41,368 nt of DNA, from IMG/VR virus record IMGVR_UViG_2671180984_000033. One strand, given 5' to 3'. Shown piece by piece: positions 2,071 to 35,816 of this stretch (position 1 is its first letter; each line of letters starts with the position of its first letter). The notes below the pieces were generated by a model. It worked only from the letters and a program-made list of their open reading frames with translations, was not told the origin of the DNA and searched no databases. The stretch comes from a virus (lineage: Duplodnaviria; Heunggongvirae; Uroviricota; Caudoviricetes). The position numbers were made by a program, and so were the translations under genes.

Positions 2071-3458
2071 GCTATACCTCTCTTTTTCATGGCATCGAGC
2101 AGGATGTCCTGCACTGTTCGTTTTGAGTTGCGCCGCTCCATCACCATTTCGTCCATAGTGTCGGCAGCAATAATGTGGTGAATAAATACCGGACGATTGT
2201 GTCCGGCCTGTATCTGTCTGGTTGGGCCGATACGTTCAATAATTTGCTGATATTGCTCCAGGTCCCACCAGTGTGAGAAAAATACCAGTATATTTCCGCC
2301 GTCCTGCATGTTCAGACCGTGGCCCGCGCTGGCTGGGTGTGCAAAGAGAACAGGAATCTTTCCGGAATTCCAGTCACGTAGTGTCTGTGGATCCTGGTCG
2401 AGGTGACGACCGCGAGGAAATGCTTTAAGCAAGCGTTCAAGATCGTGTTTCCAGTGATAAGCAACCAGCACAGGTGCGCCAGCTGCTTCGGTCAGTATGC
2501 TGTCCAGCGCCTGTAGTTTGGTGTCATGCAGTTCTGACCAACTTCCGGTGTCATCTGTGTATACTGCGCCGCTGGCGATTTGCAGACACTTCAGTGTCTT
2601 TGCCGCGGCGTTCGGTGCTTCGATGCCTTCGCCATTCAGCTCGAGGTACATTTCCTTTTCCATTTCACGATACTGCTGACGGGCCTTCGGCGGCATATCC
2701 ACGCGGATTACGTTATGGATGGGGTCTTTGATATCGAACCAGTCGGCCGCATCCAGCGAGAGGGTCACATCGGCTAACGCTCGCTGTATTTCACCCTGTG
2801 AGTGAGCAAAAGGCTCCAGTTTGGTCCAGCTCTGCCCCGGAAACTGTATCGATTTGAACCAGCGTGAGGTAAACGCGCCGTAAGTGCGCCCGAGACGTTG
2901 CCCCTGGTCCACAAACCACGATTGTCCCCACAAATCTACCAGGCCGTTCGGTGCTGGCGTACCGGTGAGATTTATCCAGCGCCGGACATACTTGTGCGCC
3001 ACTTTGCCCAGCGCCGCCGCGCGCTTACCACCACCTCGCAGCCGGAAGGATTTTAGCCGGGTGCTTTCATCTGGAATGACAGTACCGAACGGCCATCGTT
3101 CTCCCAATTCTTCAACCAGCCAGACAAGGTTATCGTAGTTGATTGTGAACACGCTCGCGTTGCTGTTCGCCAGCGCTGTAGAGCGCGCTTTGGCGTTACC
3201 GATGATCGGCTGTACCTCAATATTACGCAGATGCCCCCATTTAACAGCTTCATCAGGCCAAGTGCTTGCTGCAACGCGTAGCGGCGCGAGGACCAGCGCG
3301 GGGCGTGTTTCTGCTCCAGCCATGAAAAGATCTTCCAGCGTGGTGAGTGTCGCTACGGTTTTACCCATCCCCATCCCTGCCCAGATGTTGCCGCGCAGGG
3401 GCTCGATTTGATGATTGATGATGAGATCTTGGTAGGGACGTGGTTTAAAAGTTATCAT
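2067..3458 (-). CDS. SNF2/DEAD-like ATP-dependent helicase
   Basis: N-terminal PRPYQ motif and Walker A GMGMGKT; 463 aa. Confidence 0.7.
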   Translation of the reverse strand: MITFKPRPYQDLIINHQIEPLRGNIWAGMGMGKTVATLTTLEDLFMAGAETRPALVLAPLRVAASTWPDEAVKWGHLRNIEVQPIIGNAKARSTALANSNASVFTINYDNLVWLVEELGERWPFGTVIPDESTRLKSFRLRGGGKRAAALGKVAHKYVRRWINLTGTPAPNGLVDLWGQSWFVDQGQRLGRTYGAFTSRWFKSIQFPGQSWTKLEPFAHSQGEIQRALADVTLSLDAADWFDIKDPIHNVIRVDMPPKARQQYREMEKEMYLELNGEGIEAPNAAAKTLKCLQIASGAVYTDDTGSWSELHDTKLQALDSILTEAAGAPVLVAYHWKHDLERLLKAFPRGRHLDQDPQTLRDWNSGKIPVLFAHPASAGHGLNMQDGGNILVFFSHWWDLEQYQQIIERIGPTRQIQAGHNRPVFIHHIIAADTMDEMVMERRNSKRTVQDILLDAMKKRGIA

Positions 3459-15860: not shown

Positions 15861-16128
15861 AGGTGACGGCTAGGTGACGGCAAAACGCTTAAGCGTCACC
15901 TTAAAAAGTATATATAAAACAATGGGAAATGTGCTAAAGGTGACAGGTGACGGCAGAATTTAAAACTATATACGCGAGAGTGTGTATTTTAGGTATTATA
16001 CGATCGCTTATATATAGAGAACTAAAATCAACCGTCACCTGTCACCTAAAACATCTTCAGGCCTTATATGGCGCGCTTTGCAGCAGGTGACGGATATGTA
16101 ATTACGCGTCACCTAGCCGTCACCCGGA
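15861..16128. repeat. Nested inverted-repeat array of GGTGAC(G/A)G boxes around an AT-rich core (putative origin of replication)
   Basis: Eleven GGTGAC copies: forward-oriented at about 15862, 15873, 15939 and 15946, reverse-oriented at about 16032, 16039, 16107 and 16118, plus singles near 15893 and 16086, flanking an AT-rich centre (about 15960-16025). Confidence 0.6.
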
Positions 16129-16173
16129 AATTAACTTGAAAAAATTAGCAAATAACTAAATGAGGATACGACG

Positions 16174-16464
16174 ATGTCAAAGATATTCCGCCAATGTATG
16201 CCTTACGGTATCCGCAAAACAGCTGAGGGGGCTTGGGAAGCATTCAACAGAGACTACCAGCCCTTAGGGGAGGCTTTTTTCTTCAAAAGAGCACTAACGC
16301 AGGCCACTCGAGATGTGTTGGCGCCACCGCCGGTAACTCAGCGCGACGACTGTGTATGGCTGTATAGCGATATCGAGCACCCGATGCACTCTGAGGCTTA
16401 CTGGAAAGCGTATTGCCAGCGGCTTAAACATCTTTCTAACCTCAAAATGAAAGATGAACGGTAA
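16174..16464 (+). CDS. Hypothetical phage protein
   Basis: 96-aa ORF with GAGGA Shine-Dalgarno, between the origin-like region and Q. Confidence 0.45.
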   Translation: MSKIFRQCMPYGIRKTAEGAWEAFNRDYQPLGEAFFFKRALTQATRDVLAPPPVTQRDDCVWLYSDIEHPMHSEAYWKAYCQRLKHLSNLKMKDER

Positions 16465-16489
16465 GTAGCAAAACGTAGAGGTCAGAGCT

Positions 16490-16912
16490 ATGCGTGATAT
16501 TCGACTGGTTTTAGAGCGATGGGGGGGCTGGGCTGCGAGCGAAGGTTGCAGTGTCTACTATCCACCTGTTTCCGCTGGATTTAAGAATCTGCTACCTGCA
16601 ACGCAAGCCGGGCGGCTGAAGTGCAGTGACAATGACGGTCTGATCATCAGCTCTGCTATGAACTGCCTGAAGAAAAAAGATCCGTACCTGTGTACGCTCC
16701 TTGAGTGGCATTACATCCAGGCGATGCCTGTGAGGGCTATGGGTGTGAAGCTCGGCGTATCACACACTCAAGTTCTGAAGAGGCTCCAGGCTGCAGAGGG
16801 ATTTATCGACGGCTGCCTGGCTATGCTGGACGTGGTTCTGGAAATGGATCAAGCAGTTCAGTCAAAGCCTAAGGCTATCAGGACTTTGCGAAGGAGCTGC
16901 CCGGCGGCATAA
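16490..16912 (+). CDS. Late-gene antitermination protein Q-like
   Basis: N-terminal MRDIRLVLERWGGWAA resembles lambdoid Q-family proteins as I recall them; sits just upstream of the lysis cassette. Confidence 0.65.
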   Translation: MRDIRLVLERWGGWAASEGCSVYYPPVSAGFKNLLPATQAGRLKCSDNDGLIISSAMNCLKKKDPYLCTLLEWHYIQAMPVRAMGVKLGVSHTQVLKRLQAAEGFIDGCLAMLDVVLEMDQAVQSKPKAIRTLRRSCPAA

Positions 16913-17066
16913 TATCCAGTAATCAATCACGTAAGGGAATCAGATGGTATTCAGGATTGCCGTAAACACCTGACGGCTTCAGGTATCAAGGTAAGATAAA
17001 AAATAGTTGTGGAATTCCAAAAAGCCGATTAGCCTGATATCTGTTGAAAACAGTTCATCACGAAGA

Positions 17067-17090
17067 GGCTCCCGCAAGGGGGCCTTTTTT
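17067..17090 (+). terminator. Intrinsic terminator in the late leader (tR'-like)
   Basis: GGCTCCC-GCAA-GGGGGCC hairpin with GNRA-type loop followed by TTTTTT. Confidence 0.6.
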
Positions 17091-17320
17091 AATGCTCTAT
17101 TCTCAGTAAAAGTTAATAAAACAGGGTTTTCGTCGCGAAAAAACGCTATGCAGTTTTTGCCCTTTTTTATGCACCTTTTATTCACTCGAATTTCGTCATT
17201 TTGAACCACTTAAGTTGATTAAATAGGCCTTTCATCGCAAATCTATTGCGAGCGGGGATCGTGTGGTTCCTATAACGTACATTATGTTAAATAACTTCCT
17301 TTTTTAACAAATTTAACAAG

Positions 17321-17343
17321 GTTCGCTATGGCGAACTTTTTTT
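17321..17343 (+). terminator. Second intrinsic terminator upstream of the holin gene
   Basis: GTTCGC-TATG-GCGAAC hairpin followed by TTTTTTT. Confidence 0.55.
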
Positions 17344-17444
17344 GTATTCAGGGCCCACCGAAGGACGGCTCATAACCCAATCCTACGGGCGTATACGCAG
17401 GGCCCGCCTTTCAACAACACCCCGTAATGGCGGAGGTGGGAAGT

Positions 17445-17786
17445 ATGAAAATGCACAATGCTCCTCATTCCTGGCCTGACTTACTGGAACTCTTACAAAG
17501 TTGGTGGCGTGGAGATACGCCGTTGGGCGCAGTGGTTATGTCAATTGTTATGGCTGGTTTGCGCATTGCCTATTTTGGCGGTGGCGGCGGCTGGAAACGA
17601 AAAACGCTTGAGATTTTGCTCTGTGGTGCTCTGACGCTGACCTTTGCATCCGCTCTTGAGTATGTTGGATGGCCTAAATCGCTTTCTGTTGCCATTGGTG
17701 GTGGTGTTGGGCTGATCGGTGTCGATGCTATTCGTGGGGCTGCAATGCGAGTAATCGGTAACAAGTTTGGTGGCTCTAAGGAGTAA
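17445..17786 (+). CDS. Holin with dual-start motif
   Basis: Hydrophobic helices; ORF opens at 17427, but the GGAGGTGGGAAGT upstream of ATG-AAA-ATG (17445, 17451) looks like the real ribosome-binding site, giving an M-K-M dual start. Confidence 0.7.
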   Translation: MKMHNAPHSWPDLLELLQSWWRGDTPLGAVVMSIVMAGLRIAYFGGGGGWKRKTLEILLCGALTLTFASALEYVGWPKSLSVAIGGGVGLIGVDAIRGAAMRVIGNKFGGSKE

Positions 17787-17789
17787 TTC

Positions 17790-18266
17790 ATGCAGACACT
17801 AAATTCCCAACGTAAAGCTTTCCTGGATATGGTGGCATGGTCAGAAGGAACGGATAACGGGCGACAACCGACACGTAATCACGGTTATGACGTTATCGTC
17901 GGAGGTGAGTTGTTCACTGATTACTCCGATCACCCTCGCAAACTTGTCACGCTCAACCCGAAGCTTAAATCAACAGCTGCAGGCCGGTATCAGCTTCTTT
18001 CACGCTGGTGGGATGCCTACCGCAAGCAGCTTGGCCTGAAAGATTTTTCGCCAGAAAGTCAGGATGCTGTGGCGCTGCAGCAGATTAAAGAGCGTGGCGC
18101 TTTACCGATGATTGACCGTGGAGATATTCGTCAGGCAATCGACCGTTGCAGCAATATCTGGGCGTCGTTACCTGGTGCAGGTTACGGTCAGTATGAACAT
18201 AAAATCGGTGACCTGATTTCCAGGTTTAAAGATGCTGGTGGGGTGGTAAATGAAGCTGACTTATAA
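17790..18266 (+). CDS. R: Endolysin, lambda R-type lytic transglycosylase
   Basis: 158 aa nearly identical over most of its length to lambda R as I recall it (QRKAFLDM.AWSEGTDNGRQ.TRNHGYDVIVGGELFTDYSDHPRKLVTLNPKLKST). Confidence 0.9.
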   Translation: MQTLNSQRKAFLDMVAWSEGTDNGRQPTRNHGYDVIVGGELFTDYSDHPRKLVTLNPKLKSTAAGRYQLLSRWWDAYRKQLGLKDFSPESQDAVALQQIKERGALPMIDRGDIRQAIDRCSNIWASLPGAGYGQYEHKIGDLISRFKDAGGVVNEADL

Positions 18267-18774
18267 GATTGTCATCGCGGCATTTTTCTTCTCTGTCTTT
18301 GGGGCGCTCGTCTGGTCTGCAAACCATTACCACAGCAAGTATCAGGCAGAAAAGTTGCGGGCTGATAAAGCGGAAGGTGAAGCTGAATATCAAGGGAAAG
18401 TGATAGCTAATCAGGCATTAAACTTCAATCGTTTTAACCAGATAGCAGAAAACGCAAGCCGATTAAATTCTCTGGTCGACATCGATCACGAGAAGACAGT
18501 CATCAAATACCGTGAGGTTCTGCTCCGTGAAAAGAACTGTGATTTCCCTGTTCCTGTTGATATTGCTGTCGGGTTGCTCAACTACGCGAACCGTTTACGC
18601 GCCAGCGCATTGCACGCCGATTCCGGGGACATTGACTCAGCCGGTGATCGTGCCACTACCACCAGAACGTTGACATATTGCCAGGCTGTTCTGTGGATTA
18701 ACCCATTGTTGGCAGCCATCGAGAAGGCGAATAACCAGTTGGCTGGTGTCCGACAAATAGAACAGTCCCGGTAA
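18250..18774 (+). CDS. Rz: Rz-like inner-membrane spanin
   Basis: N-terminal transmembrane helix then coiled-coil region; SANHYH motif similar to lambda Rz; overlaps the end of R. Confidence 0.7.
   Translation: MKLTYKIVIAAFFFSVFGALVWSANHYHSKYQAEKLRADKAEGEAEYQGKVIANQALNFNRFNQIAENASRLNSLVDIDHEKTVIKYREVLLREKNCDFPVPVDIAVGLLNYANRLRASALHADSGDIDSAGDRATTTRTLTYCQAVLWINPLLAAIEKANNQLAGVRQIEQSR
18527..18673 (+). CDS. Rz1-like outer-membrane lipoprotein spanin, embedded in the +1 frame of Rz
   Basis: My translation from a GTG start gives VKRTVISLFLLILLSGC (signal peptide with lipobox) then a Pro-rich segment ending PLPPER; not in the ORF track because it is under 60 aa. Confidence 0.5.
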   Translation: MKRTVISLFLLILLSGCSTTRTVYAPAHCTPIPGTLTQPVIVPLPPER

Positions 18775-19410: not shown

Positions 19411-21033
19411 ATGCCGTTACCATTCCCCTTCGATTTTAAACATCCTGATTACCAGATGGTTTTTGAATGGCGGATGGAACGCTTACAGCGCATTCGCCAG
19501 AACCCTGAAATATTGCCAGCACTAAAACAGTTTTACCGAACCAACCCGGCTCAGTTCATCATCGACTGGGGCATGACAACGGACCCGCGTAATATTGATT
19601 ATGGCCTGCCGGTGACCATTCCGTTTTTACTCTTCCCTAAGCAGGAGGAGTGGATCCACTGGATTATGGAACGCTGGGGCAATCGGGAGAATGGTATTAC
19701 CGAAAAATCCCGTGAAATGGGGCTCAGTTGGACCGCGATCGGACTGGCCTGCTCGCTTTGTCTCTTCAACAAAGAAATGGTTATCGGTTTCGGCTCCCGT
19801 AAAGAGGAATACGTCGACAGCACCGGTGACCCGAAAGCATTGTTCTGGAAGGCGCGCAAGTTCGTGGAAACACTGCCTGTAGAGTTTCGCGGTTCGTGGA
19901 GCGAGAAGAAGCACGCGCCATATATGCGTGTTGAGTTTCCTGAAACTGGTGCCGTTATCAAAGGCGAGGCTGGCGATAATATTGGTCGTGGTGACCGTAC
20001 CACGCTTTATCTGGTTGATGAGGCTGCATTCCTTCAGCGTCCTCTGCTGATTGATGCGGCGTTGTCACAAACGACGCGTTGCCGTATCGACCTGAGTTCA
20101 GTTAACGGCATGGCTAACCCGTTCGCTCAGAAGCGTCATGGCGGGAAGATACCGGTATTCACATTCCACTGGCGGGATGATCCTCGCAAGGATGAAGAGT
20201 GGTATCGCAGGGAATGCGAGAAAATCGATAATCCGGTGGTGGTGGCACAGGAACTTGATCTGAACTACAGCGCATCAGCGGAAGGCGTCCTGATTCCATC
20301 CGAATGGGTACAGGCTGCCGTTGATGCGCATATCAAACTGGGTATCCAGCCAACAGGCAAACGACTTGGCGCGATGGATGTCGCCGACGAAGGCAGGGAC
20401 AAAAATGCCTTTTCCACCCGTCATGGCTTCCTCCTGGAAAATGTGCGGGAATGGTCCGGTGTGGGCAGCGACATTTATCAGTCCGTCGAGAAGGTTTTCG
20501 GCTTTTGCGAACAGGACAACCTCGAAGAGTTTCGCTTTGACGAGGACGGGCTGGGCGCTGGCGTTCGCGGCGATGCACGCGCTATCAACGAACTGCGTAA
20601 CGCTGCGCGTCGACCGTCAATACTTGCCACACCGTTTCGAGGTAGTGGCGCGGTATTTGATCCGGATGATGAAGCTGTTCGCGGGGACAACGGGCAAGCC
20701 GCACGTCTGAACAAGGACTTCTTCGCTAACGCCAAAGCCCAGAGCTGGTGGCGGTTACGTAAACTTTTTCAGAATACCTGGCGCGCCGTGGTTGAAGGTA
20801 TGGCTTACAACCCGGACGAAATCATCTCAATCAGCAGTAGCATGGCACTCAAAGATAAACTCATCATCGAGCTTTCGCAGCCGACCTATTCCATTAATGG
20901 TGTGGGGAAAATAGTTATTGATAAACAGCCTGATGGAACCCGATCGCCAAACCTTGCCGACTCGGTGATGATCAACTATGCCCCAATGAATTCAGCCCTG
21001 AACATCTGGGAGCTGCTAGGGAGACAGGCCTGA
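19411..21033 (+). CDS. Terminase large subunit
   Basis: 540 aa with ATPase and nuclease-like regions (LYLVDEAAF); position between small terminase and portal. Confidence 0.8.
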
Positions 21034-24362: not shown

Positions 24363-24869
24363 ATGAAAAATGTATTTCTGTACCGGATGCCTGTTGGCAT
24401 TGCCGGGGCTGTCTCTCGCCCGCAGGACTTAACCGTCGAACCGGTGGTCCTTAAATCCGATGACGCCTTCGCTGCCTATGGGCTGGCTGGTAAATACGAT
24501 GATGACGGTTTTTTCGTGCCGCTGGCAGATGGTGATACCGCAGACAAGGTGAAGGGGATCTACGTGCGCCCTTATCCGACCACGTCGCAGCCGGACATGG
24601 TTCGCCAGGTGGGAACAGGCAAGAACTTCCCTGGCGACGCCATGAAGCGTGGCTACGTGACTGTTAATCTCGGTTCTGATTTTGATGCCAGCACCATCAA
24701 AAAAGGCGACCCGGTATACGTTGTCGTCTCCACTGATGAATCCATCAAAGTGCCGCTGGGTGGATTCATGTCCACGTCAGTCAGTGGCAAAAATGTGATG
24801 CTGACCAACGCTGAATTCACAGGTGCCGGTGATGCTGACGGCAATGCAGAAATTTCCTGGAAGATTTAA
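24363..24869 (+). CDS. Head structural protein (possible decoration protein)
   Basis: 168-aa ORF immediately upstream of the major capsid gene. Confidence 0.4.
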   Translation: MKNVFLYRMPVGIAGAVSRPQDLTVEPVVLKSDDAFAAYGLAGKYDDDGFFVPLADGDTADKVKGIYVRPYPTTSQPDMVRQVGTGKNFPGDAMKRGYVTVNLGSDFDASTIKKGDPVYVVVSTDESIKVPLGGFMSTSVSGKNVMLTNAEFTGAGDADGNAEISWKI

Positions 24870-24880
24870 GGAACAGACGA

Positions 24881-25822
24881 ATGATTACTTTTGATCAGGC
24901 AACCGTTGACAGCTCTGGTGCCTTTCTCATCGGGGAGCTGGAGCGACTCGACCAGACGCTGAACCTGCCACTGGTGGGGTACACCTGGACCCGCGATATT
25001 CAGTTGCGTGAAGATGTCTCTATCGCAGATGACATTTCCAGCTGGACGAATACCAGCTTCGCCGCTGCGGGTACTGGTGCAAATCCGAATGGCAAAAACT
25101 GGGTAGGCAAAGACTCAACCGCTATTGCTGGCGTGAACGTGGATATCGGCAAATCCGGTAACCCGCTGAACCTGTGGGGGATGGAACTTGGCTGGACGGT
25201 CATAGAATTGCAGGCTGCTCAGCAGGTCGGACGCCCGATCGATACGCAGAAGTATGACGGGATGCAACTGAAATGGCAGATGGATAACGATGAACAGGTG
25301 TATGTTGGCGATTCCGCATTAAACCTGAAAGGTCTTGTTACCCTGGACGGTGTGCCTGTCAACAACGCTGCCAAAACGTGGGCAACCTCAACACCGGACG
25401 AAATCCGCGCAAGCATTAACCAGGTGCTGTCTGATGCGTGGGCCGCTTCCGGTTACTCTGTGGTTCCGCGTGATTTGCTGATCCCGCCTGAGCAGTTTGC
25501 TCTGTTGTCCAGCATCATCGTTTCATCTGCGGGTAACCAGTCCCTGTTGACGTATCTTCAGACCAACACCATCAGCTATCACCAGAACGGTGTTCCGCTG
25601 AATATCCGCGCGGTTAAATGGCTGAAAGGCCGTGGTGTGGGGAAAAAGGATCGCATGGTTGCGTACACCAACGATAAAAAATACGTCCGCTACCCGCTGG
25701 TTCCGCTTCAGAGCGTGCCGGTGCAGTATCGCGGTCTGTATCAGATCGTCACTTACTACGGCAAGCTGGGTGCGGTTGAGCCAGTGTACAAAGAAACCAT
25801 TTCGTACGTTGATGGCATTTAA
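24881..25822 (+). CDS. Major capsid protein
   Basis: 313-aa ORF in the capsid position of the head module. Confidence 0.6.
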   Translation: MITFDQATVDSSGAFLIGELERLDQTLNLPLVGYTWTRDIQLREDVSIADDISSWTNTSFAAAGTGANPNGKNWVGKDSTAIAGVNVDIGKSGNPLNLWGMELGWTVIELQAAQQVGRPIDTQKYDGMQLKWQMDNDEQVYVGDSALNLKGLVTLDGVPVNNAAKTWATSTPDEIRASINQVLSDAWAASGYSVVPRDLLIPPEQFALLSSIIVSSAGNQSLLTYLQTNTISYHQNGVPLNIRAVKWLKGRGVGKKDRMVAYTNDKKYVRYPLVPLQSVPVQYRGLYQIVTYYGKLGAVEPVYKETISYVDGI

Positions 25823-25864
25823 CAGCCACATGGCCCCCTGGCGGGGGCCATTAAGGATGACCCG

Positions 25865-26086
25865 ATGGCAAAAAATAATGCAGTAATACACGTACATACC
25901 CCGTTTGTGCTCACGCTTCCCGACGGTTCACGGCGCGAGTTTGTTAAAGGCAGTCATGCTGTGGAGGAAGACGTTGCCACGCACTGGTTCACTCGTGCGC
26001 ACGCAGAAGTATCCGTTGGCAAAGCCACAGATGCACGTAACGAGGTAAAAAATGCCAAAGAATCAAAGTCTGCCAGCGGTAAGTGA
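25865..26086 (+). CDS. Hypothetical small head-module protein
   Basis: 73-aa ORF after the capsid gene. Confidence 0.35.
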
Positions 26087-26459
26087 TTTTCGCCGCGACT
26101 TCCCGCAGTTTGCTGACCCTGCCAAATATCCCGAAGCGCAAATCCAGTTTCGTCTGAATCTGGCCGATGAACTGCTGAGTGAAAACGTCACCGGCAAAAA
26201 GTTGTTTCCGTACTTTGCCGGATTGTTCGTTGCGCACTACATGACGCTCTGGGCGGCAGACAGCCGGGCGATGCTGGCTGGTGGTCCGGGCGGTTCAACC
26301 AATGGTGTTCAGTCCTCAAAGTCCGTTGACAAGGTAAGCGTCAGCTATGACACCAGCGCGACGCTGAATCCTGATGCAGGTTTCTGGAATAACACCCGAT
26401 ATGGCGCTGAATTTTATCAGTTGATCACGATGTTCGGTGCAGGCGGTCGCCAGCTATGA
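26052..26459 (+). CDS. Head-tail connector/adaptor protein
   Basis: 135-aa ORF in the neck-gene position. Confidence 0.45.
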
Positions 26460-27010
26460 GTTTCAAAAGCGGTGTAACAACGAGGGTGGATAACGCTAAG
26501 GCCATTCTGGATGCGCTCAGGTCGTTAACCAAAAAAGATGTGCTGGTCGGCATCCCTTCGGAAGACAGCGAGCGGGATGATGTTCCGTTTGGTAATGCGG
26601 GCATCGGTTACCTCAACGAATACGGCTCACCAGAGCAGAACATCCCGCCACGACCTCACCTGGTCCCCGGCGTTAAATCGGCAGAAGAGCAGACGGTGCC
26701 GCAGCTCAAAGCCGCGGCGCAGGCTGCTCTTGATGGTAATGCTGCGGGAGCAGAACGCGCACTCAACCGTGCCGGAACGCTGGCCGTTAATGGCGTCAGG
26801 CGTTACATGACCATTACCGGCTTTACGCCGCTTGCTGACAGTACTGTTGAAGCCCGGGCTCGTCGGGGGCGCAAGGGGGCAACACTGGAACTTGCCCGGC
26901 GTGCTGCTGGCGAATCTCCGGGAACCGAACTGGCGAAACCATTAATTGATACCGGGCAATATCGCAGAGCTATTACCCATGTTGTGAGGGATAAAAATGC
27001 CGACTCTTGA
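26456..27010 (+). CDS. Head completion / neck protein
   Basis: 184-aa ORF, overlapping starts in the neck block. Confidence 0.4.
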
Positions 27011-27386
27011 TGTAACAGATGTGCTTTTTGACCCCGATTTTTGCGACTTCAATTTGTGGGTAACACGCCGTGTGCAAACGGTGGATGAGGACGGGATCGG
27101 CAGAGACAGCGAAGTTAAAAAGCAGTTTGCCGGAGTCGTAACTGTTGATCGCTCTCTGGAAAACCGTCGTATGCAGGCCGGGCAGGTAATCAGCGGTGCA
27201 ATTCTGATTGTGACGACTGAGCGACTGACGCAGGGACAGACTGGCCGTGATGCCGATATCGTGACGTATCAGGGCCGTGATTATCGTGTGACCTTCGTCG
27301 ACCCGTATACAGCTTATGGGGCCGGATTCGTTCAGGCGCATTGTGAGTTGATGCCGTTTGATGGGGGAACTCCGGTTGAGCAATAA
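26997..27386 (+). CDS. Neck / tail completion protein
   Basis: 129-aa ORF in the neck block. Confidence 0.4.
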   Translation: MPTLDVTDVLFDPDFCDFNLWVTRRVQTVDEDGIGRDSEVKKQFAGVVTVDRSLENRRMQAGQVISGAILIVTTERLTQGQTGRDADIVTYQGRDYRVTFVDPYTAYGAGFVQAHCELMPFDGGTPVEQ

Positions 27387-27924
27387 CACCAGTACAGAGC
27401 GCGGATGGTTAATACCAACCAGTGGCGATCCGGATTATGACGAAGCGCTCGACAGGCTGTTAAGCCAGTGGATGCGTAACGTTTCCGGTCTGTCTGCCGG
27501 GATGGTTCGCCCGCGCTGGCAGAAAGAGCAGCCGCCACTGCTACCGGCTGAAACGAACTGGTGTGCGTTTGGGGTTATCGGATGGTCAGGTGATGACAGT
27601 CCGGCATTCACCAGACAGACCGATGATGGCTCTCAGCTCTGGCGGCATGAAACGATTGAGTGTATGGCTTCGTTTTATGGTCCGGCGGGGATGGTGTATG
27701 CGTCCCGGTTTCGTGACGGTATATCTGTACCGCAGAACAATGCAGCACTGAATGCGCTGGGGCTGTCTCTTGGCGATTACACAGGTCTGACTCCCTTCCC
27801 TGAACTTATTAATCAGCAATGGGTCCGCCGCTACGATATGACGGTGCGTCTGCGCCGGAAGGTTGTGCGCGAGTACGGTATTAAATCGCTGGTGGAAGCA
27901 CCAGTCATCTTTTTCGGAGATTAA
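27358..27924 (+). CDS. Tail completion / sheath terminator-like protein
   Basis: 188-aa ORF immediately before the sheath gene. Confidence 0.4.
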   Translation: MMGELRLSNNTSTERGWLIPTSGDPDYDEALDRLLSQWMRNVSGLSAGMVRPRWQKEQPPLLPAETNWCAFGVIGWSGDDSPAFTRQTDDGSQLWRHETIECMASFYGPAGMVYASRFRDGISVPQNNAALNALGLSLGDYTGLTPFPELINQQWVRRYDMTVRLRRKVVREYGIKSLVEAPVIFFGD

Positions 27925-27927
27925 GCT

Positions 27928-29073
27928 ATGGCACAGGGCTTGCCTGTATCAAACGTTGTTAATGTTGATGTGATCATGTCGCCGCGTGCAGCATCAGGGC
28001 GAAATTTTGGTGCATTACTCATTCTCGGCCCGTCCACAATCATTCCGGTAAGTGAGCGCATTCGCCGTTATTCTGCCGCGGAAGATATTGGAAAAGATTT
28101 TGGCGTGGAATCACCAGAATATAAGGCTGCGCAGGTGTTTTTCTCACAATCACCGAAACCTCAGGAGGTTTTTGTTGGTCGTTGGGTGAAAACGAAGGGA
28201 GACAGCGAACAGGCCACGCCTGAGACGCTGGAGCAGGCTGTGAATGCCATGCTCGATTATACTTCATGGTATGGGCTGGGGATTGCAGACGATGCAGATA
28301 TTCCGGATGCAGACTGGCTGAAAGTGGCTGCGGCGATCGAATCCTCTTCTGTAAGCCGTATTCTGGCGATTACGACAAGCGATGAGAAATGCCTGCAGAC
28401 TGCATCCAGAGATGATTTGGCATCAAAACTGAAAACCGCCGGATATTCACGCAGTTTTATTCAATATTCATCGGGTAATAAATACGCTGCGTTATCTGCA
28501 TTTGGCCGGGCATTCACGGTTAATTTCAATGGCAGTAATACCGCGATTACGCTCAAGTTTAAGCAGGAGCCGGGTGTCGGGTATGAAACACTGACAGTCA
28601 GCCAGGCATCGGCACTTGATGCAAAAAACTGCAATGTATTTGTGTACTACCAGAATGATACGGCTATCCTCCAGCAGGGAGTGATGGCTAACGGCGATTT
28701 CTTTGATGAACGTCACGGCCTGGACTGGTTACAGAATTATGTGCAGACCAACCTCTATAACCTGCTTTATACCAGCACCACGAAAGTTCCCCAGACTGAA
28801 GCCGGTATTACCCGACTGTTATCAAATGTTGAAAAATCACTGGATCAGGCCGTTCAGAATGGACTGATTGCTCCGGGCGTATGGAACGGGGGCGACCTTG
28901 GTCAGCTGTCATCAGGTGACACACTGCCCAAAGGTTATTACGTATACGCCCAGCCGCTGGATGAACAGGCACAATCAGAACGTGAAGCCCGTAAGGCTCC
29001 GGTGATTCAGGCTGCAATAAAACTTGCAGGCGCGGTTCATTACGCTGACGTACAGATTAACGTTGTTCGCTAA
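27928..29073 (+). CDS. Tail sheath protein (DUF3383-like)
   Basis: 381 aa, followed by a tube-like gene and a chaperone-tape measure pair. Confidence 0.55.
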
Positions 29074-29083
29074 GGGGAAGTGA

Positions 29084-29524
29084 ATGTCTACCTATTCTTT
29101 TATGGATGTCACTGCGACGCTGACCGGGCCGACCGGTTCGATTGACCTCGGGTACAGTTCTGCAAGTTCTGAAGAGGGGATTGTGGTTGCGATGGGCGGT
29201 CCTAAAAACACCATGACCATCGGTGCTGATGGCGAAGTGATGCACAGTCTCCATGCAGATAAAAGCGGGACGATTACCGTTAACCTTCTGAAGACATCAC
29301 CGACAAATAAAAAATTGTCGCTGGCGTATAACGCACAGAGCCAGTCTTCTGCCACATGGGGGAATAACGTTATCGTGATCCGCAACAAGGTCAGCGGCGA
29401 CATCATCACGGCACGCAGTGTTGCGTTCCAGAAACAACCGGATAACGCCAACGCTAAAACCGGTAATACGATGCCGTGGGTGTTTGACTGCGGCAAGATT
29501 GACCAGGTTCTCGGGGAGTTTTAA
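29084..29524 (+). CDS. Tail tube protein (DUF3277-like)
   Basis: 146-aa ORF between sheath and chaperone. Confidence 0.55.
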   Translation: MSTYSFMDVTATLTGPTGSIDLGYSSASSEEGIVVAMGGPKNTMTIGADGEVMHSLHADKSGTITVNLLKTSPTNKKLSLAYNAQSQSSATWGNNVIVIRNKVSGDIITARSVAFQKQPDNANAKTGNTMPWVFDCGKIDQVLGEF

Positions 29525-29527
29525 TAC

Positions 29528-29980
29528 ATGGAATTCGAAATCAAAGGCGTGAAATATCGCGCGGCAAAACTCAACGTTTTTGACCAGCTGAAAGTGACCC
29601 GCAAACTTCTGCCGGTACTGGCGGGAATGATGTCAGATTTCGGGAGCATTCGCTCCCGTTTGCCTGCTGATGGCAAAATTGACACCGTGAAATTCGAACA
29701 GTTAAAACCGGTGTTTGAAACCATGCTCCCGCGTATCGCTGAGGAACTGTCTTCCCTGACCGAAGATGACACCGATGCGATTATTCATCCCTGTCTTGCG
29801 GTGGTATCGCGGCGTCATATGGACGGATGGGTGCCGGTATTTACCCAGGGCGAACTGATGTTTGATGATATTGACTTGCTGGTCATGCTGCAGCTGGTGG
29901 CGCGGGTGGTCGCCGATTCGCTGGGAAATTTTTTGCCTACACCCCTTACCAGCACGACGCAGAGCCTGCAACAGGGCTGA
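29528..29980 (+). CDS. Tail assembly chaperone
   Basis: 150-aa ORF directly upstream of the tape measure gene, with a slippery run near its 3' end. Confidence 0.6.
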   Translation: MEFEIKGVKYRAAKLNVFDQLKVTRKLLPVLAGMMSDFGSIRSRLPADGKIDTVKFEQLKPVFETMLPRIAEELSSLTEDDTDAIIHPCLAVVSRRHMDGWVPVFTQGELMFDDIDLLVMLQLVARVVADSLGNFLPTPLTSTTQSLQQG

Positions 29981-30177
29981 TGTTTAACAGCCTGCCGGAC
30001 GGGCTGTCCTACCTTCTCAATCCGGTTGACGCCGGGTTAATTCCTTATACATCACTTAAAGATGGCTCTGTCGATTTGTACGACATTGCTCTCTTGAATG
30101 ACCATCTGGCGGTAAAAGCGGATAACCAGCGGCGCATTGAGAAATGGAGAGAGGATAATGAACGCCGAGACTATTAA
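29528..30177 (+). CDS. Predicted -1 frameshift extension product of the tail assembly chaperone
   Basis: CTGGGAAATTTTTTGCC at about 29921-29937; the -1 frame stays open from there through ORF 29980..30177. Confidence 0.4.
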
Positions 30178-32164
30178 AGATTTCCTCGTCTCGCTTGGCT
30201 TCAGTGTGGATGATGCAGGAGCGAAAAAGTTCGGTTCTGTCCTCGCCGGTACAACTGCAAATGTCATCAAAATGGGGCTGGCCGTCGAAGGAGCTGCGCT
30301 GTCCGTGGTGGCTTTCACGGCTAAGATCGCCTCTGGTCTGGATAATCTTTACTGGGCGTCACAGCGCACCGGCGCGACAGTCCAGGGAATTCAGTCTATT
30401 GGCTATGCGGTTTCGCAGGTTGGCGGCAGCGTGGACGCTGCGCGATCTTCTCTGGAAAACCTCTCCCGGTTTATTCGTAACAATCCCGGAGCAGAAGGCT
30501 TTCTGAATCGCCTGGGCGTACAGACCCGTGATGCCAGCGGTAACATGCGTGACATGGCCGCTATCTTTACGGGCGTTGGACAGAAACTCAGCAGCATGCC
30601 GTATTACCGGGCTAACCAGTATGCGCAGATGCTGGGCATTGACGAAAATACCCTGATGGCTATGCGTCGCGGAGTGGGGCAGTTCAGCGCTCAGTATTCA
30701 GAAATGGTGAAAGCGATCGGATTTAATGCCGATCAGGCTGCCTTATCGTCAAACCGGTTTATGACCTCGCTGAAATCGCTCGGTGAAATGGCCGGGATGG
30801 CGCGGGACAAAATCGGATCGAATCTTGCGGACGGACTGGCGGGGCAGATTGATAACCTGCGCAAAAAGATAATTGAAAATTTTCCCAAAATTGAAGTCAC
30901 CATCACAAAGGTCATAAAGGGGATCCTCTGGCTGGGTGAGATAGTCGGGCGGGTTGCATTTCGGATAGTCGATGGTGTCGGAGATATCATCGAGTGGTGG
31001 GGGAAACTGGATGCCGAAACGAAAAACCTGATAGAGGTTATCGGCGGTCTGGTTGTCGCCATGCGGATACTTAACTCTACTTTCTGGATGTCACCTATAG
31101 GGCTGATTACCGGTCTGATCGTGGCTCTCGGTCTCTTGTGGGAAGACTACAAAACATGGAAAGAAGGCGGTAACAGTCTTATCGACTGGGAAAAATGGCA
31201 ACCGGCAATAGATAAAGCGAAGGATGCGATCACCTGGCTTCGTGATCACTTTCTGGAACTAAAAGATGGTGTTGGCGGCTGGCAAAATGCACTGGAAATC
31301 ATCGGTACATTCATCGCGGGTGTCTGGGTATCCAAGGTTCTGGGGGCTTTCGGAAAAATATCAGGTTTACCGGTCCCACCCTGGCTTAAATTGTGGGCGC
31401 TTTACGCGGGCTATATTGTTAGTGACAGAGAAAATATTGCTGATAGCGCAAAATCTTCACTGAGGTATACGAAGCGAATTATCGGCGACACGCTGGCTGC
31501 TATTGGTATAAAAACAGATATCGGACGCAGGGATGTCAGTGAGGTCCGTGAATGGCCTGCGTGGATGGACTGGTTGCACGGGGGACCCGGTAAAGTTATC
31601 CGGCAGGGACAGAGTAACGGTGTAGTGCATGGCTCCAATGTCCAGCCCGACATCCCCGGCGGCGGCACTCTTGCTGATCGCAACAATAACCCCGGGAACA
31701 TTCGCCCGGTGAGCGGTAAAGGGTTCCGTTTTTTCGAATCAGCGCTTGAGGGCTGGGAGGCGATGAAAAACCAGCTCATGCGTTACTTTACCGGGAAAAC
31801 AACCGGACGGGCATTACAGACTATTCAGGATATTGTCAGTACCTGGGCCCCGGCAGGTGATAACAACGATCCGAAAAAGTATGCACAGGATGTTGCGAAA
31901 TGGATGGGAGTATCACCGAATGCAATATTGAATCTTACAGATCCCCGGACTATGGGAGCATTGATGCAGTCGATGGCGCGCAAAGAAGGTTATTCAAACT
32001 GGAACAGCCCGCTGGCGTATAAGGTCGCCGCTGGCAGCCTTAACCAGCAGACTGTTATAAATGTTCATGGAGTTAACAACCCTCAGGAGGCGGCTAATCT
32101 GATCGCTGACAAGCAGGGGGCTGTAAATGCCAGGGCGGTACAGCAATTGAAAGGACCTGCGTAA
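30158..32164 (+). CDS. Tail tape measure protein
   Basis: Long helix-rich protein with hydrophobic central segments; track start 30137 is TTG, while ATG 30158 has a GAGAGGA Shine-Dalgarno. Confidence 0.75.
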   Translation: MNAETIKDFLVSLGFSVDDAGAKKFGSVLAGTTANVIKMGLAVEGAALSVVAFTAKIASGLDNLYWASQRTGATVQGIQSIGYAVSQVGGSVDAARSSLENLSRFIRNNPGAEGFLNRLGVQTRDASGNMRDMAAIFTGVGQKLSSMPYYRANQYAQMLGIDENTLMAMRRGVGQFSAQYSEMVKAIGFNADQAALSSNRFMTSLKSLGEMAGMARDKIGSNLADGLAGQIDNLRKKIIENFPKIEVTITKVIKGILWLGEIVGRVAFRIVDGVGDIIEWWGKLDAETKNLIEVIGGLVVAMRILNSTFWMSPIGLITGLIVALGLLWEDYKTWKEGGNSLIDWEKWQPAIDKAKDAITWLRDHFLELKDGVGGWQNALEIIGTFIAGVWVSKVLGAFGKISGLPVPPWLKLWALYAGYIVSDRENIADSAKSSLRYTKRIIGDTLAAIGIKTDIGRRDVSEVREWPAWMDWLHGGPGKVIRQGQSNGVVHGSNVQPDIPGGGTLADRNNNPGNIRPVSGKGFRFFESALEGWEAMKNQLMRYFTGKTTGRALQTIQDIVSTWAPAGDNNDPKKYAQDVAKWMGVSPNAILNLTDPRTMGALMQSMARKEGYSNWNSPLAYKVAAGSLNQQTVINVHGVNNPQEAANLIADKQGAVNARAVQQLKGPA

Positions 32165-32814
32165 TGGACTTTTTATCTGTTTTACTGCAGCAGCGAACCC
32201 GCTCAATAGGAATCATTATTCCTGATGTGGTTATTACCGAAAAGCACACTGACGCCCTGGAAATTACGGAACATCCTGTTGAACAGCCCACGAATGCTGG
32301 TGCCAGTGGTGAGGGCGCTGGTTATATATCAGAACACGCATTCAGGCGCCCTTCTGAGGTTGTGATGGAAACCGGTTTTTCCGGAGGCGGATCGCTGCTT
32401 GATTTTGCCAGTAACCTGACGGCTACCAGTTTACTGGGGCTGAGCCCGAAAGAACTGTATCAGGAACTGCTTAACCTGCAGCGGAATCGTATTCCTTTCG
32501 ATGTGACAACCGGCAAGCGTATTTACAACAATATGTTGATAAAAACGCTGGAGGTCACGACCGATAAGAGTAGTGAAAATGTGCTTCTGGCGACGCTTAC
32601 CCTCAGGGAAGTAATTATTACCTCCACGCAGTCAGTCAGGGTTGCCCCGAAAAACAATATGACCGAGGGAGTCGGAACGTCTGCTGTGCAGAATACAGGC
32701 ACCAAAACAACCGTGTCACCGAATAATTCCATTCTGAAATCGCTGCCACAGATGGCGCAAGAAGGTATCTCCACTGTTGATGGGTATTTGAGCAATTTAT
32801 TTCTGGGAAGATGA
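32164..32814 (+). CDS. Tail/baseplate protein
   Basis: 216-aa ORF immediately after the tape measure gene. Confidence 0.45.
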   Translation: MDFLSVLLQQRTRSIGIIIPDVVITEKHTDALEITEHPVEQPTNAGASGEGAGYISEHAFRRPSEVVMETGFSGGGSLLDFASNLTATSLLGLSPKELYQELLNLQRNRIPFDVTTGKRIYNNMLIKTLEVTTDKSSENVLLATLTLREVIITSTQSVRVAPKNNMTEGVGTSAVQNTGTKTTVSPNNSILKSLPQMAQEGISTVDGYLSNLFLGR

Positions 32815-32817
32815 TTC

Positions 32818-33120
32818 ATGAAAGCCGTAGAAATCCCACTGGTTGCTGACAATCAGACTTTTGCCACCACAATTAACGGTTCGGTTTATCACCTGTCTGT
32901 CATCTGGCGAGGAGAGTACTGGGTTCTGGATCTTGCTGACAGCAATGGTTCCGCCATTATATCAGGTATACCGATGATTACGGGGGCTGACCTGCTGGCA
33001 CAGTATCGATATATGGATCTGGGTTTTTCTCTGGTGGTGCTTTGCGACGTGGCAGGGCAGGAGAGTCCGACGCAATTCGGTCTTGGAACGCTCTCACACC
33101 TCTATGTTTTCACGGAGTAA
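32818..33120 (+). CDS. Small tail/baseplate protein
   Basis: 100-aa ORF in the baseplate block. Confidence 0.45.
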   Translation: MKAVEIPLVADNQTFATTINGSVYHLSVIWRGEYWVLDLADSNGSAIISGIPMITGADLLAQYRYMDLGFSLVVLCDVAGQESPTQFGLGTLSHLYVFTE

Positions 33121-33122
33121 CA

Positions 33123-34154
33123 ATGTCGAAAAACTGGATGCGTCACTTTGAATTATTGCTTGTTGATGATAAGGGCGACGGGATAAAAATTTCTGAGCTT
33201 AAAGTCACTTTCAATATTCAGAAAATGCCTGCGACCATATTTAATGGATTCGTTGGGAATTTTAAGGTTTATAACCTGTCCCCTACCACTCAGAACCGGA
33301 TTATGCAGAAGGAGTTTTCGCGTATACAGGTTATTGCCGGATACAAGGGGCAACCGGATGCAGCAGGTAATTATCCTGATGAAAACGTTGGCATGATATT
33401 CAATGGAGATATCCGTTTTACTGTCACTGGTAAAGATAATGCCACAGACAGTTGGATCATATTGCAGTGTATTGACAGTTGGGAAGGCCACCTGAACGCA
33501 AGTGTGAAAACCACAGTGGCAGCTGGCTGGAAGTACAGCGATCTTTTCAGTCTGGGTATGAAATCATTCGAACCATATGGCATCGAATCCGGCGCAGTTC
33601 CTGACATGCCTGAAACGGTATTTCCCCGAGGCCGCGTTGTTTATCAAAACACATCAAGGTTGATGAATCATATCGCAGGGCAGTGTAAAGCTAACTGGTG
33701 GTATGAAAATAATCTGGTAAATATTGTTCCTGAAGATAAATATATTGGTGTTGCTACGGTGTTGAATGCTAACACCGGGCTTATCGGTATGCCACAGCAG
33801 ACGATGGGAGCTGGCGTAAATGTCAGATGTCTGATTAATCCAAATATTAAGCTGGGTGGACTTATTCGTCTGGATCAGGCATCCGTATACCGTGCCTCTT
33901 TGAGTAATGACCAGGTAGCGAAATCGCCAGCACGACTGGATGAGTCTGAAAGCGACGGTAATCTCTACGTTAACGGTCTGCCAGGCATGTCACAGCCTGC
34001 CAGTATTAATACTGACGGTGATTACATTGTGGGCAGCATTGATTATACTGGCGACACCCGAGGGCAGGCGTGGTATATGGACCTGCTTTGCCTGGCTAAA
34101 GGTGGCAAAGAATTGCTTAACTCGAAAGGGATTGATGCGGCGAAATACACATGA
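33123..34154 (+). CDS. Baseplate hub-like protein
   Basis: ATG at 33123 directly after the previous stop (track start 33042 overlaps the upstream gene). Confidence 0.45.
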   Translation: MSKNWMRHFELLLVDDKGDGIKISELKVTFNIQKMPATIFNGFVGNFKVYNLSPTTQNRIMQKEFSRIQVIAGYKGQPDAAGNYPDENVGMIFNGDIRFTVTGKDNATDSWIILQCIDSWEGHLNASVKTTVAAGWKYSDLFSLGMKSFEPYGIESGAVPDMPETVFPRGRVVYQNTSRLMNHIAGQCKANWWYENNLVNIVPEDKYIGVATVLNANTGLIGMPQQTMGAGVNVRCLINPNIKLGGLIRLDQASVYRASLSNDQVAKSPARLDESESDGNLYVNGLPGMSQPASINTDGDYIVGSIDYTGDTRGQAWYMDLLCLAKGGKELLNSKGIDAAKYT

Positions 34155-34486
34155 AAAGACCATTGTTGACAGTTTTACTTGTCTGTATCTCCTTCATTTC
34201 CTTTGCTGATACCGGTTGCGGACCATTTACGATCAACTGGAAAGCGCAAGACGGACTTGCAAGGATTAATGGACAGAAACCGGAGACACAGAAAATCATC
34301 TTTCTCAAACAGGAAGGTGATTATGACAATGTGAACATCCAATGGATGATTCCGGGTAATGGGCGTTGGTTAGGGATGGATTTTGTGGCCAGAAATGGCA
34401 AGCCGATCCTCAACGTTGAAGTTATCCGCAAAAATATGGACGACCCTCGGGAGTTCTGGACGTATGATTGCCGGAAGGTGAAGTGA
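34151..34486 (+). CDS. Small secreted protein (accessory gene)
   Basis: 111 aa; N-terminal signal peptide (MKRPLLTVLLVCISFISFA); start overlaps the upstream stop (ATGA); lower GC than the tail genes. Confidence 0.5.
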   Translation: MKRPLLTVLLVCISFISFADTGCGPFTINWKAQDGLARINGQKPETQKIIFLKQEGDYDNVNIQWMIPGNGRWLGMDFVARNGKPILNVEVIRKNMDDPREFWTYDCRKVK

Positions 34487-34575
34487 GTTTGACGTTGTTT
34501 AGACAACCAGACAATTGGTGTTAAACTGCGTAGGTATTACCATTTCCAGACCAAAGATGAAAGCTAGCGTCGAAC

Positions 34576-35376: not shown

Positions 35377-35747
35377 CACCAAGGGATTTTCTTGCCATGG
35401 CTTCTGATGCACCTGTTTCTGATGAAATGCTTAATCGAAATGCTGTTAGCAGGGCGTATTATTCCAGCTATTTACATGTTAATGAAAAAGTGACTGCTTT
35501 GAATTTGCCGCTTCCCAAAGTAAATGGCGGTGTACACGCCCGTTTGATCAGTGGTCTGAATAATGGGGCGTACAGTGACTTAAATAACGGAATAAGTCAT
35601 GATGCGCAGCTTGAAATTGCAGGGTTACTTAGTTTGTCAAAGCAGCTCAGAACAAAGGCTGATTATAAGTTACACATGACTATCAATAACACGGATAAAG
35701 CCACAGCGATAGCGAATGCTAAAGCGGTCTTTGAATTGCTTCCATAG
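35367..35747 (+). CDS. Hypothetical protein, second gene of the overlapping pair
   Basis: 126 aa; 10-nt overlap with the upstream ORF; followed by a strong terminator. Confidence 0.5.
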   Translation: MPVTPRDFLAMASDAPVSDEMLNRNAVSRAYYSSYLHVNEKVTALNLPLPKVNGGVHARLISGLNNGAYSDLNNGISHDAQLEIAGLLSLSKQLRTKADYKLHMTINNTDKATAIANAKAVFELLP

Positions 35748-35773
35748 CCATGGAAAGAACATTAGCCACATTA

Positions 35774-35803: not shown

Positions 35804-35816
35804 TGGAGACATATGA

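Follow-up and report, generated by a model that had tools for sequence, protein, structure and literature searches.

The 532-bp gap that separates the gene of the antiterminator Q from the holin gene in IMG/VR virus record IMGVR_UViG_2671180984_000033 (positions 16913-17444 of the analyzed 41,368-nt stretch, the whole of which is hereafter called the window) is best explained as a mosaic leader of the late operon, encoding lysis and structural proteins, of an SfV-like lambdoid prophage, and we estimate the probability of this reading at roughly 55%. In this leader, two intrinsic terminators, t1 and t2, bracket an Xer recombination site resembling psi of plasmid pSC101, and the second terminator is followed by a three-way-junction RNA element, part of which resembles the initiator tRNA. 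The order Q-t1-Xer-t2-RNA was retained across diverged Q variants and different lysis cassettes. Q-dependent late control is a textbook system whose leaders are usually viewed as a promoter, a pause site, and a terminator; the present leader carries two further conserved elements, neither the psi-type Xer site nor the initiator-tRNA-like RNA being described in the literature and databases searched.

From the sequence features, family relations, conservation, and covariation, all of which were directly observed, we infer the position of the promoter, the dependence on Q, the activity of the Xer site, and the role of the RNA as follows. Most probably, a promoter that overlaps the end of Q starts transcription across the remnant of a phiTE_015-family gene; without Q, transcription would stop at t1 or else at t2, and RNA polymerase modified by the Q21-family protein would read through both. 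The psi-type Xer site most likely serves the circular phage genome in multimer resolution or recombination and would be a passenger in the leader. Past t2, the read-through transcript would fold into the three-way-junction RNA, a presumably cis-acting part of antiterminated operon leaders, and a further hairpin would cover the ribosome-binding site of the dual-start holin gene.

The window represents a lambdoid, SfV-like Escherichia coli prophage that is, across the region, 99% identical to the induced phages vB_EcoM-606R2 and 611R5 and their relatives. Of 5426 complete E. coli genomes, 138 contained the entire 532 bp (95-99% identity), its location being chromosomal every time, and four induced phages (vB_EcoM-606R2 and relatives) carried it as well. 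The gene order in the window is primase/helicase, a small open reading frame (ORF), Q, the 532-bp gap, holin, endolysin, Rz, TerS, and TerL.

Terminators, Q module and candidate late promoter

The features of the leader and its two borders, apart from the Xer site and the RNA element, are as follows.

16490-16912, + strand: Q antiterminator gene; 140 aa; Pfam PF06530 (Phage_antitermQ, Q21 family), E=8e-41
16886-16913, + strand: candidate late promoter TTGCGA-16 nt-CATAAT, overlapping the Q stop codon; 9/12 consensus positions; putative
16944-16999, + strand: remnant of a phiTE_015-family gene (113 aa if intact) with a frameshifting, out-of-frame internal deletion of 286 bp
17007-17033, + strand: relic like the C-terminal coding end (…VEFQKAG-stop) of another Q variant, recognized by direct reading rather than by a computed alignment
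17062-17090, + strand: terminator t1; hairpin 17062-17089 with 12 pairs and a GCAA (GNRA) loop; T run 17085-17090
17318-17343, + strand: terminator t2; hairpin 17318-17339, then TTTTTTT to 17343
17418-17438, + strand: hairpin predicted by folding over the holin Shine-Dalgarno sequence (GGAGGUGGG, 17432-17440)
17445-17786, + strand: holin gene, lambda family (PF05106, E=1e-27); Met-Lys-Met (MKM) dual start with ATG 17445 and ATG 17451

Compared with shuffled sequences, both hairpins folded as good intrinsic terminators. The folding energy of t1, which a simple terminator scan had missed and which was found by folding, was -19.9 kcal/mol (z=-3.9; 0/200 shuffles folded as well), and that of t2 was -10.4 kcal/mol (z=-4.1). 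Relatives, designated herein by L numbers, kept a terminator at both positions though the hairpin sequences had been replaced. A mosaic breakpoint in E. coli genomes fell at 17079, inside t1; in L003, a downstream block 98.9% identical to that of the window is joined at this point to a Q only 41% identical to the window Q, a different hairpin 22 nt after Q being followed by the same U run and the downstream block. Two further combinations of Q and hairpin occupied the t1 spot in L312 and L258, with the U run after each hairpin, and in relatives without phiTE_015 a terminator lay 10-70 nt downstream of Q. The breakpoint and the variant hairpins thus indicated that the Q module is exchangeable and that t1 forms its conserved right end. 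At the second position, t2 was replaced by other GC-rich hairpins with a U run in L257, L312, L258, and L426.

As judged by sequence comparison, the window Q is a short, divergent branch of the Q21 family. It gave no match in the PDB, and its sister from L003 matched the 21Q structures 6JNX/6P18 weakly. The DNA-contact residues of 21Q were tried as a guide to the Q-binding element, and the transfer failed because of the missing PDB match of the window Q.

Immediately after Q, alignment with L002 and L005 revealed what had been lost from the window. Both relatives carry an intact, annotated 113-aa gene of the phiTE_015 family, which starts 31 nt after Q and ends at the equivalent of 16999, and the window retains its ribosome-binding site, its ATG (16944), and its last ~54 nt, directly joined by the deletion. 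The same 286-bp deletion destroys the gene in the window and about 94 E. coli genomes. Pairs of Q and phiTE_015 recurred beside Q proteins down to about 66% identity, and this recurrence marks the phiTE_015 gene as a regular partner of this Q branch; a comparison with L134-L158 likewise presented a Q of the Q21 branch and a phiTE_015-family gene as a conserved adjacent pair across diverged phages. The relic further downstream was noticed upon direct reading of the sequences, L159 and L160 having GTGGAATTCCAAAAGGCTGGTTAA where the window has GTGGAATTCCAAAAAGCCGATTAG.

The late promoter could not be placed with confidence, and the best candidate would be the one overlapping the Q stop codon. In a promoter scan, it was the sole sigma-70-like match on the + strand between Q and the lysis genes, and other Q variants had a -10-like hexamer at the equivalent place (TATGAG with an upstream TG in L003, TATGGT in L258). 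Each Q protein acts specifically at a binding element of its own, located between -35 and -10 and built as a direct repeat in phage 21 (PMC6606751; bioRxiv 10.1101/651190). Since Q acts only at its own element and the same downstream block is joined to so divergent a Q in L003, the promoter should travel with Q, upstream of 17079 and t1. The IMG/VR contig L426 has, about 250 nt before position 12006, a lambda-like PR' (TATATTTGACATTAACGATGGG) that precedes a pair of intrinsic terminators and, beyond them, a late-type copy of the RNA element; the layout with two terminators in series is thus recurrent. The same contig has an SfV-type RNA copy at 3319-3427 on the opposite strand.

Several observations weigh against the candidate. 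Its 9/12 match was not above chance (3 sites found vs. 4.3 expected), neither a clear sigma-dependent pause element nor a Q-binding direct repeat was recognized, and in L003 a transcript started at the equivalent promoter would reach t1 after only about 45 nt. No convincing -10-like hexamer followed the candidate start, where a pause element would be expected in the first ~25 transcribed bases, and the spacer showed only a weak GCnGC periodicity of 8 bp. The weak consensus match would be of no concern if the late promoter were located downstream of t1, so that t1 ended an early transcript with Q (and phiTE_015) and the late leader contained only t2 or neither terminator. Such an arrangement would also suit the crowding past Q in the relatives, where the nearby terminator (its hairpin starting 22 nt past the Q stop in L003) or a phiTE_015 gene 14-31 nt past the stop leaves no room for a classical PR'. 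We nevertheless regard it as unlikely: a scan of 17090-17444 gave no promoter match on the + strand, a block past 17079 that is common to such dissimilar Qs is hard to square with Q-specific sites within it, and the recognizable PR' of L426 precedes both terminators. A promoter at the end of Q thus remained the preferred placement.

These results bear on an earlier note on this DNA, which had described the region as a Q-type leader with two terminators to be read through. Its Q-like gene upstream of the lysis genes was confirmed by the Pfam match, its GNRA-loop terminator and second terminator both proved real, and its reluctance to place the late promoter was justified by the weak consensus match and the lack of an evident pause element. 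The two-terminator leader itself gained support from the comparison, both in the retention of the terminators and in L426, but it turned out to be composite rather than simple, for the first 90 nt belong to the deleted gene and the 230 bp from one terminator to the other, rather than being spacer, are a psi-type XerC/XerD site with its accessory sequences.

A psi-type Xer site between the terminators

The site comprises three parts.

17265-17292, + strand: XerC/XerD core; XerC arm GGTTCCTATAA (17265-17275), central region CGTACA (17276-17281), XerD arm TTATGTTAAAT (17282-17292)
17118-17264, + strand: Xer accessory region; AAAACAGGGTTTTCG at -146, Block A at 17137-17185, AAATAGGCCTTTCA at -44, CGAGCG at -16
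17293-17313, + strand: conserved right flank of phage Xer sites (…TTTTTTAACAAATT…), from the family alignment

Distant BLAST matches of 17136-17313 were located in intergenic gaps in the late operons of Klebsiella and Yersinia phages, and the shared 14-mer CCATTATGTTAAAT led to dif through a literature search. E. coli dif reads GGTGCGCATAA-TGTATA-TTATGTTAAAT (PMC2731167), and the sequences of psi and cer were read from pSC101 and ColE1, respectively. Nothing in the window matched the dif arms except the core, which had 3 mismatches in the 22 specified bases (19/22 matching), with 0.00 matches expected by chance; its XerD arm matched dif at 11/11 positions and its XerC arm at 8/11. Relatives had better XerC arms (GGTGCGGGTAA, GGTGCGCATAA) and psi-like central regions (nnnCCA). 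This block, then termed Block B, had also been tried as a sigma-70, sigma-28, sigma-32, or Q-type promoter with a pause element, and these promoter readings were dropped because of the perfect XerD arm and the XerC arms of the family.

The accessory region pointed to psi as well. Two of its landmarks lie at psi-like distances from the core (-146 vs. -144 in pSC101 psi, and -16 vs. -16), and within Block A three TATGCA/TATTCA repeats occur with 21- and 11-bp spacing. When the accessory regions alone were aligned, the z-scores were 10.1 for the window and L018, 6.4 for L018 and psi, and 2.7 for the window and psi, and the sister type-2 phage sites matched the psi accessory region at E=1.5e-7 and 4e-7 with the core excluded. 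By these alignments, the accessory regions of the window and of pSC101 psi are homologs connected through intermediate relatives. There was no homology between the accessory regions of the window and cer (z=0.4), and psi and cer themselves do not align either. No ArcA box was detected in the accessory region of the window, which lacks a TGTTA-type repeat; type-2 phage sites do carry ArcA-like boxes. An ARG box was considered in Block A upon direct reading and rejected, its right half-site ATTCA being perfect and its left half shifted by one base.

The association of Block A with the core was assessed in an unbiased manner by searching IMG/VR with Block A alone and then seeking the XerD arm downstream. 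The arm was present downstream in 96 of 122 distinct instances (upstream control, 1/122), and in 89 of those 96 the spacing between Block A and the XerC arm was exactly 70 or 80 nt, the window belonging to the 80-nt class. This strict phasing fits a DNA site better than the small ORF in Block A (MQFLPFFMHLLFTRISSF) that had been entertained from some third-position variation in relatives. At 133 distinct sites, the gene downstream encoded, among others, TerL (34), portal (15), lambda-type holin (13), scaffold/protease (12), or a TerS-like protein (8), and 12 of the 13 holin-associated sites were accompanied by a terminator. E. coli, Klebsiella, and Yersinia are all hosts of tailed temperate phages with such a plasmid-type Xer site inside a late operon. 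Named carriers include Klebsiella phage Mulock, GZ7, and a Wanchaivirus; the site was unannotated in all of them and in every other record examined, and our literature searches returned no description of such sites in tailed phages.

Most phages contained one Xer site per genome, and dimer resolution was therefore taken as the default reading of its function. If active, the site would tie the maintenance or the mosaicism of phage genomes to the XerCD-PepA machinery of the host. This reading has to face several difficulties. The XerC arm of the window deviates from GGTGCG at two positions and is the most degenerate in the phage family, and Block A stands where psi has its ArcA box and cer its ArgR box, about 100 bp upstream of the core. 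All E. coli copies reside in integrated prophages, where a dimer-resolution site is without obvious use, and some phages have two or three directly repeated sites flanking essential genes, an arrangement unfit for simple dimer resolution. In Yersinia phage YP3 (L011), whose record may be misassembled, three directly repeated sites with identical cores flank TerL and portal, and in L100 two directly repeated sites with different central regions flank the same two genes; if active, such repeats would delete essential genes. Insertions within the accessory region were also observed in L004 (2400-2500) and L146, namely IS1 at the equivalent of window position 17202 and another insertion sequence after the equivalent of about 17243.

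The location of the sites at module heads, as apparent from the downstream genes counted above, would also suit a junction at which modules are exchanged or inserted, through XerCD or through homologous recombination at the conserved 28 bp, instead of dimer resolution. Nearly identical elements precede TerL in L299 and portal in L301 and L309, and similarity breaks off no more than a few bases from the XerD arm's outer edge in several independent pairs, including L119/L259, and in the three-way comparison of L243/L273/L305, although the criteria for selecting pairs limited where breakpoints could appear. Different small minus-strand genes are found between the XerD arm and TerL, but a similar small gene between TerS and TerL in L002 has no Xer site there, and no second site was present at the far end of the inserted genes. 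Moreover, the breakpoints around the window's own site are at 17079 and at 17431 or further right, not at the core. A junction for module exchange thus appeared rather unlikely to us, and resolution or recombination of the circular phage genome was retained as the probable function.

The small genes in question occupy, on the opposite strand and with their own terminators, the 300-400 bp from the XerD arm to TerL in L243, L273, L296, L100, L119, and L259; by eye, rather than by a family-library search, their products are like HEAT-repeat, YegP/DUF1508-like, and YodC/DUF2158-like proteins. The gene in L002 (4997-5203) is a small opposite-strand HEAT-repeat gene, at a place where TerS and TerL of the window are 2 bp apart (19408, 19411). 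In addition, the high-GC contigs L019, L046, L085, L093, L027/L052, L063, and L069 have a dif-like site, e.g., AGTGCGTATAA-CACCCA-TTATGTTAAAT, located amid many TGTGGATAAC repeats resembling DnaA boxes and just upstream of the terminase large-subunit gene.

A three-way-junction RNA downstream of t2

17351-17405, + strand: three-way-junction RNA; P1 17351-17356/17400-17405, P2 17358-17388, P3 17389-17398

The sequence CAGGGCCC occurs on the + strand at 17349-17356 and 17398-17405, 49 bp apart, and its count is in itself unremarkable (4 in the window vs. 1.4 expected; 10/100 shuffles reach 4). Folding of the RNA after t2 paired the GGGCCC of the two copies as helix P1 of a three-way junction, in which P2 has the apex GG-CUCAUAAC-CC. 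The minimum free energy of the element was -25 kcal/mol (z=-2.5), and its individually predicted fold was this same junction. The four close E. coli relatives aligned were invariant over 17344-17444 and structurally uninformative on their own. The diverged copies in L257 and L312 displayed compensatory changes, GGGCCC/GGGCCC being replaced by GGGCUC/GAGCCC, and the inner helices changed on both sides as well (CCG/CGG to CUG/CAG; AGGA/UCCU to CGGA/UCCG). The structure that the earlier note had suspected in the repeat is thus supported by folding and by covariation in relatives, but not the effect on holin translation tentatively ascribed to it, the copies being the closing-helix strands of an RNA ~9 nt after t2 and the holin start having a separate hairpin. 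That hairpin was not significant against shuffles (z=-1.1), and its sequence is invariant in relatives, leaving no covariation testable; the gene it precedes is annotated in close relatives as holin/antiholin.

To describe the family, a covariance model, R1, was built from 20 SfV-type (early-leader) copies only, with no late-type sequence. It comprises the closing helix P1, a P2 with apical G-C pairs and the loop CUCAUAA(C), and a variable P3. Pairs were counted on an ungapped alignment and on alignment A3, a MAFFT alignment of the P2 module being out of register. In the 20 sequences, 97.7% of cells were paired and 8 pairs changed on both sides, a result matched by 0/500 shuffles, the slid controls giving about 45%. 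R1 detected the window element at 31.8 bits (E=1.5e-6), four other late-leader copies at E of about 5e-5 to 4e-4, a fifth such copy (L327) at E=1.8e-7, and the lambda-like late leader L385 at E=1e-9. A marginal match (E=0.027) lay in lambda at 44790-44862 (L447 991-1063), directly after tR', with family-like closing-helix strands (AACAGGUAAGAGCA…UGCUCUUUCCGUUG) and a different inner part; a weak one inside the window TerL (20270-20329; 14 bits, E=0.46) probably arose by chance.

It could still be argued that the leader is a plain one without further function, in which two terminators are joined by a repeat arisen by chance and everything Xer-like or RNA-like is a decaying relic. The extreme degeneracy of the window's XerC arm and the invariance of 17344-17444 among the close relatives would agree with this view. 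However, the absence of expected chance matches to the Xer core, the phasing of Block A and core at 70 or 80 nt, the RNA covariation together with the independent R1 match, and the order of elements preserved across diverged Qs and different lysis cassettes make it highly improbable, and the mosaic leader with two additional elements was favored.

A search with the invariant loop GGCTCATAACCCAAT retrieved a large family, all members of which fold as the same three-way junction, and which includes copies in SfV, SfII, mEp460, Stx2 phages, and ST64B. The family was present in 2809 of 5426 complete E. coli genomes (52%). In K-12 MG1655, the copy in e14 (L448 2199-2282; R1 68.9 bits, E=1e-19) is covered by the ORF ymfH and has the repressor-side genes (ymfK, ymfJ) on one side and xisE-intE on the other; ymfH as annotated may be a spurious ORF. 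We take co293 (e14), presumably several kb from ymfH on the K-12 map, not to be the RNA element. A terminator-like hairpin with a U run ends ~9 nt upstream of the element in 83 of 92 distinct instances, as t2 does in the window, and G-U pairs in the family show that the RNA has the sense of the operon. The SfV copy stands at the head of the early-left operon, behind a hairpin with GTACC operator-like half-sites. Downstream of the early-leader RNA, L445 (2583-2625) and its SfV-type equivalents have a conserved GGAGAAACUAAC and then a short hairpin with a variable stem and a UUGCA, GUGCA, or UGGCA loop, which could be a further leader element.

Searches for a known counterpart were negative. Rfam at relaxed thresholds gave over 16000-18500 only sub-threshold hits, caused by the t1 hairpin, leaving the RNA element unmatched; it gave nothing at the element in relatives either, and a literal sequence search of the accessible literature did not find it. 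Gathering-level Rfam hits in related contigs concerned unrelated RNAs, namely isrI (L257 13836-13932) and C4 antisense RNA and isrK (L403 4210-4398). The known prophage sRNA svsR was rejected as a candidate, being placed at the 3' end of cI by its paper's description.

In the main family, the apical CGGGCUCAUAACCC has exactly the sequence of the E. coli initiator-tRNA anticodon stem-loop, the three G-C pairs included (14/14), and the window copy keeps 12 of these 14 bases; the initiator-tRNA sequence was verified at 100% against the annotated tRNA-Met genes, four per genome. This identity suggests an unrecognized link of phage operon leaders with the translation or tRNA machinery. Taken with the long closing helix and with the GCCA that follows the 3' side of P1 in some late-type copies (L257, L426), the anticodon arm would fit a distinct gene for a small RNA or a tRNA-like RNA, transcribed from a promoter of its own and not as part of the late leader. 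We judged such a gene very unlikely, since ARAGORN found no tRNA or tmRNA in the window, the ~9 nt after the preceding terminator offer no room for a promoter, no terminator follows the element, and the element is always in operon orientation with its strand fixed by the G-U pairs. An element of the late leader transcript therefore remained the favored interpretation, although, being downstream of a terminator, the RNA cannot itself cause read-through of that terminator.

It is possible, and we propose this tentatively, that the RNA represents an undescribed class of lambdoid cis leader elements acting via a host factor that recognizes the anticodon arm or via RNA polymerase, and that, at the same time, the Xer site is a dedicated module-exchange junction. 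The host factor would then be the 30S P site with IF3, MetRS, RNase P, or similar, and the antiterminated transcripts of early-left and late operons would be controlled by the RNA in their processivity, processing, or translation. If this were true, the Xer site would constitute the physical version of the long-postulated linker between phage modules. The presence of the RNA in K-12 e14, in 52% of complete E. coli genomes, and in the phages named above renders it directly testable in standard strains and existing transcriptome data.

Comparison with known systems

The Xer site most resembles psi of pSC101 (acted on by XerC/XerD, PepA, and ArcA), and more distantly ColE1 cer, in its 28-bp core with 11-bp arms and a 6-bp center, and it shares with psi an accessory sequence of about 150-180 bp next to the XerC arm. 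It differs from psi in lying inside the operon leader of a tailed integrating prophage, in having Block A at the ArcA/ArgR position, and in its degenerate XerC arm. Chromosomal dif is a bare terminus site with a TGTATA center, whereas the window site has CGTACA, accessory sequences, and a location inside a prophage. The attachment sites of integrative mobile elements exploiting Xer (IMEX; CTX phage and relatives) lie at the element boundary and are duplicated upon integration at dif. The window site, whose XerD arm is identical to that of dif, is a single copy, 17 kb from the left end of the window and not at the prophage boundary, and the prophage is not inserted at dif but occupies one place per genome in E. 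coli.

With respect to the RNA element, the identity of the main-family apical hairpin to the initiator-tRNA anticodon stem-loop recalls tRNA-mimic leaders such as the thrS operator, which mimics an anticodon arm; it is not a tRNA itself, having no D or T arm and being negative in ARAGORN. The put RNAs of HK022, which are cis-acting in antitermination at the start of early operons, are likewise cis-encoded, structured, and about 60-110 nt long, and the SfV-type copies head the early-left operon in phages without a recognizable N, the late-type copies being in the late leader. Nevertheless, put consists of two stem-loops without a closing helix, whereas the present element has the closing helix P1 and follows a terminator instead of preceding the terminators on which it would act. 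In HK022 itself, 24500-30100 had no match to the RNA motif at up to 4 mismatches, and R1 had no hit there or in 30000-38000, which includes the Q-S region. At the holin start, the dual Met-Lys-Met motif is present, and the predicted but statistically undistinguished upstream hairpin would overlap the Shine-Dalgarno sequence in the manner of the sdi structure of lambda S.

As a whole, the leader comes closest to the lambda-type Q cassette (Q gene, PR', qut, tR', and late genes): a Q21-family gene lies directly upstream, intrinsic terminators stand between Q and the holin, endolysin, and terminase genes, and Q modules are swapped as units ending at the first terminator. It departs from that cassette in its short, divergent Q (140 aa compared with 162 aa for 21Q), in its two terminators 250 bp apart, in the probable embedding of its promoter in the coding end of Q, in the lack of a recognizable pause element or TGAGCA-type direct repeat, and in the conserved partner gene phiTE_015 that sits, in the window's relatives, inside the leader.

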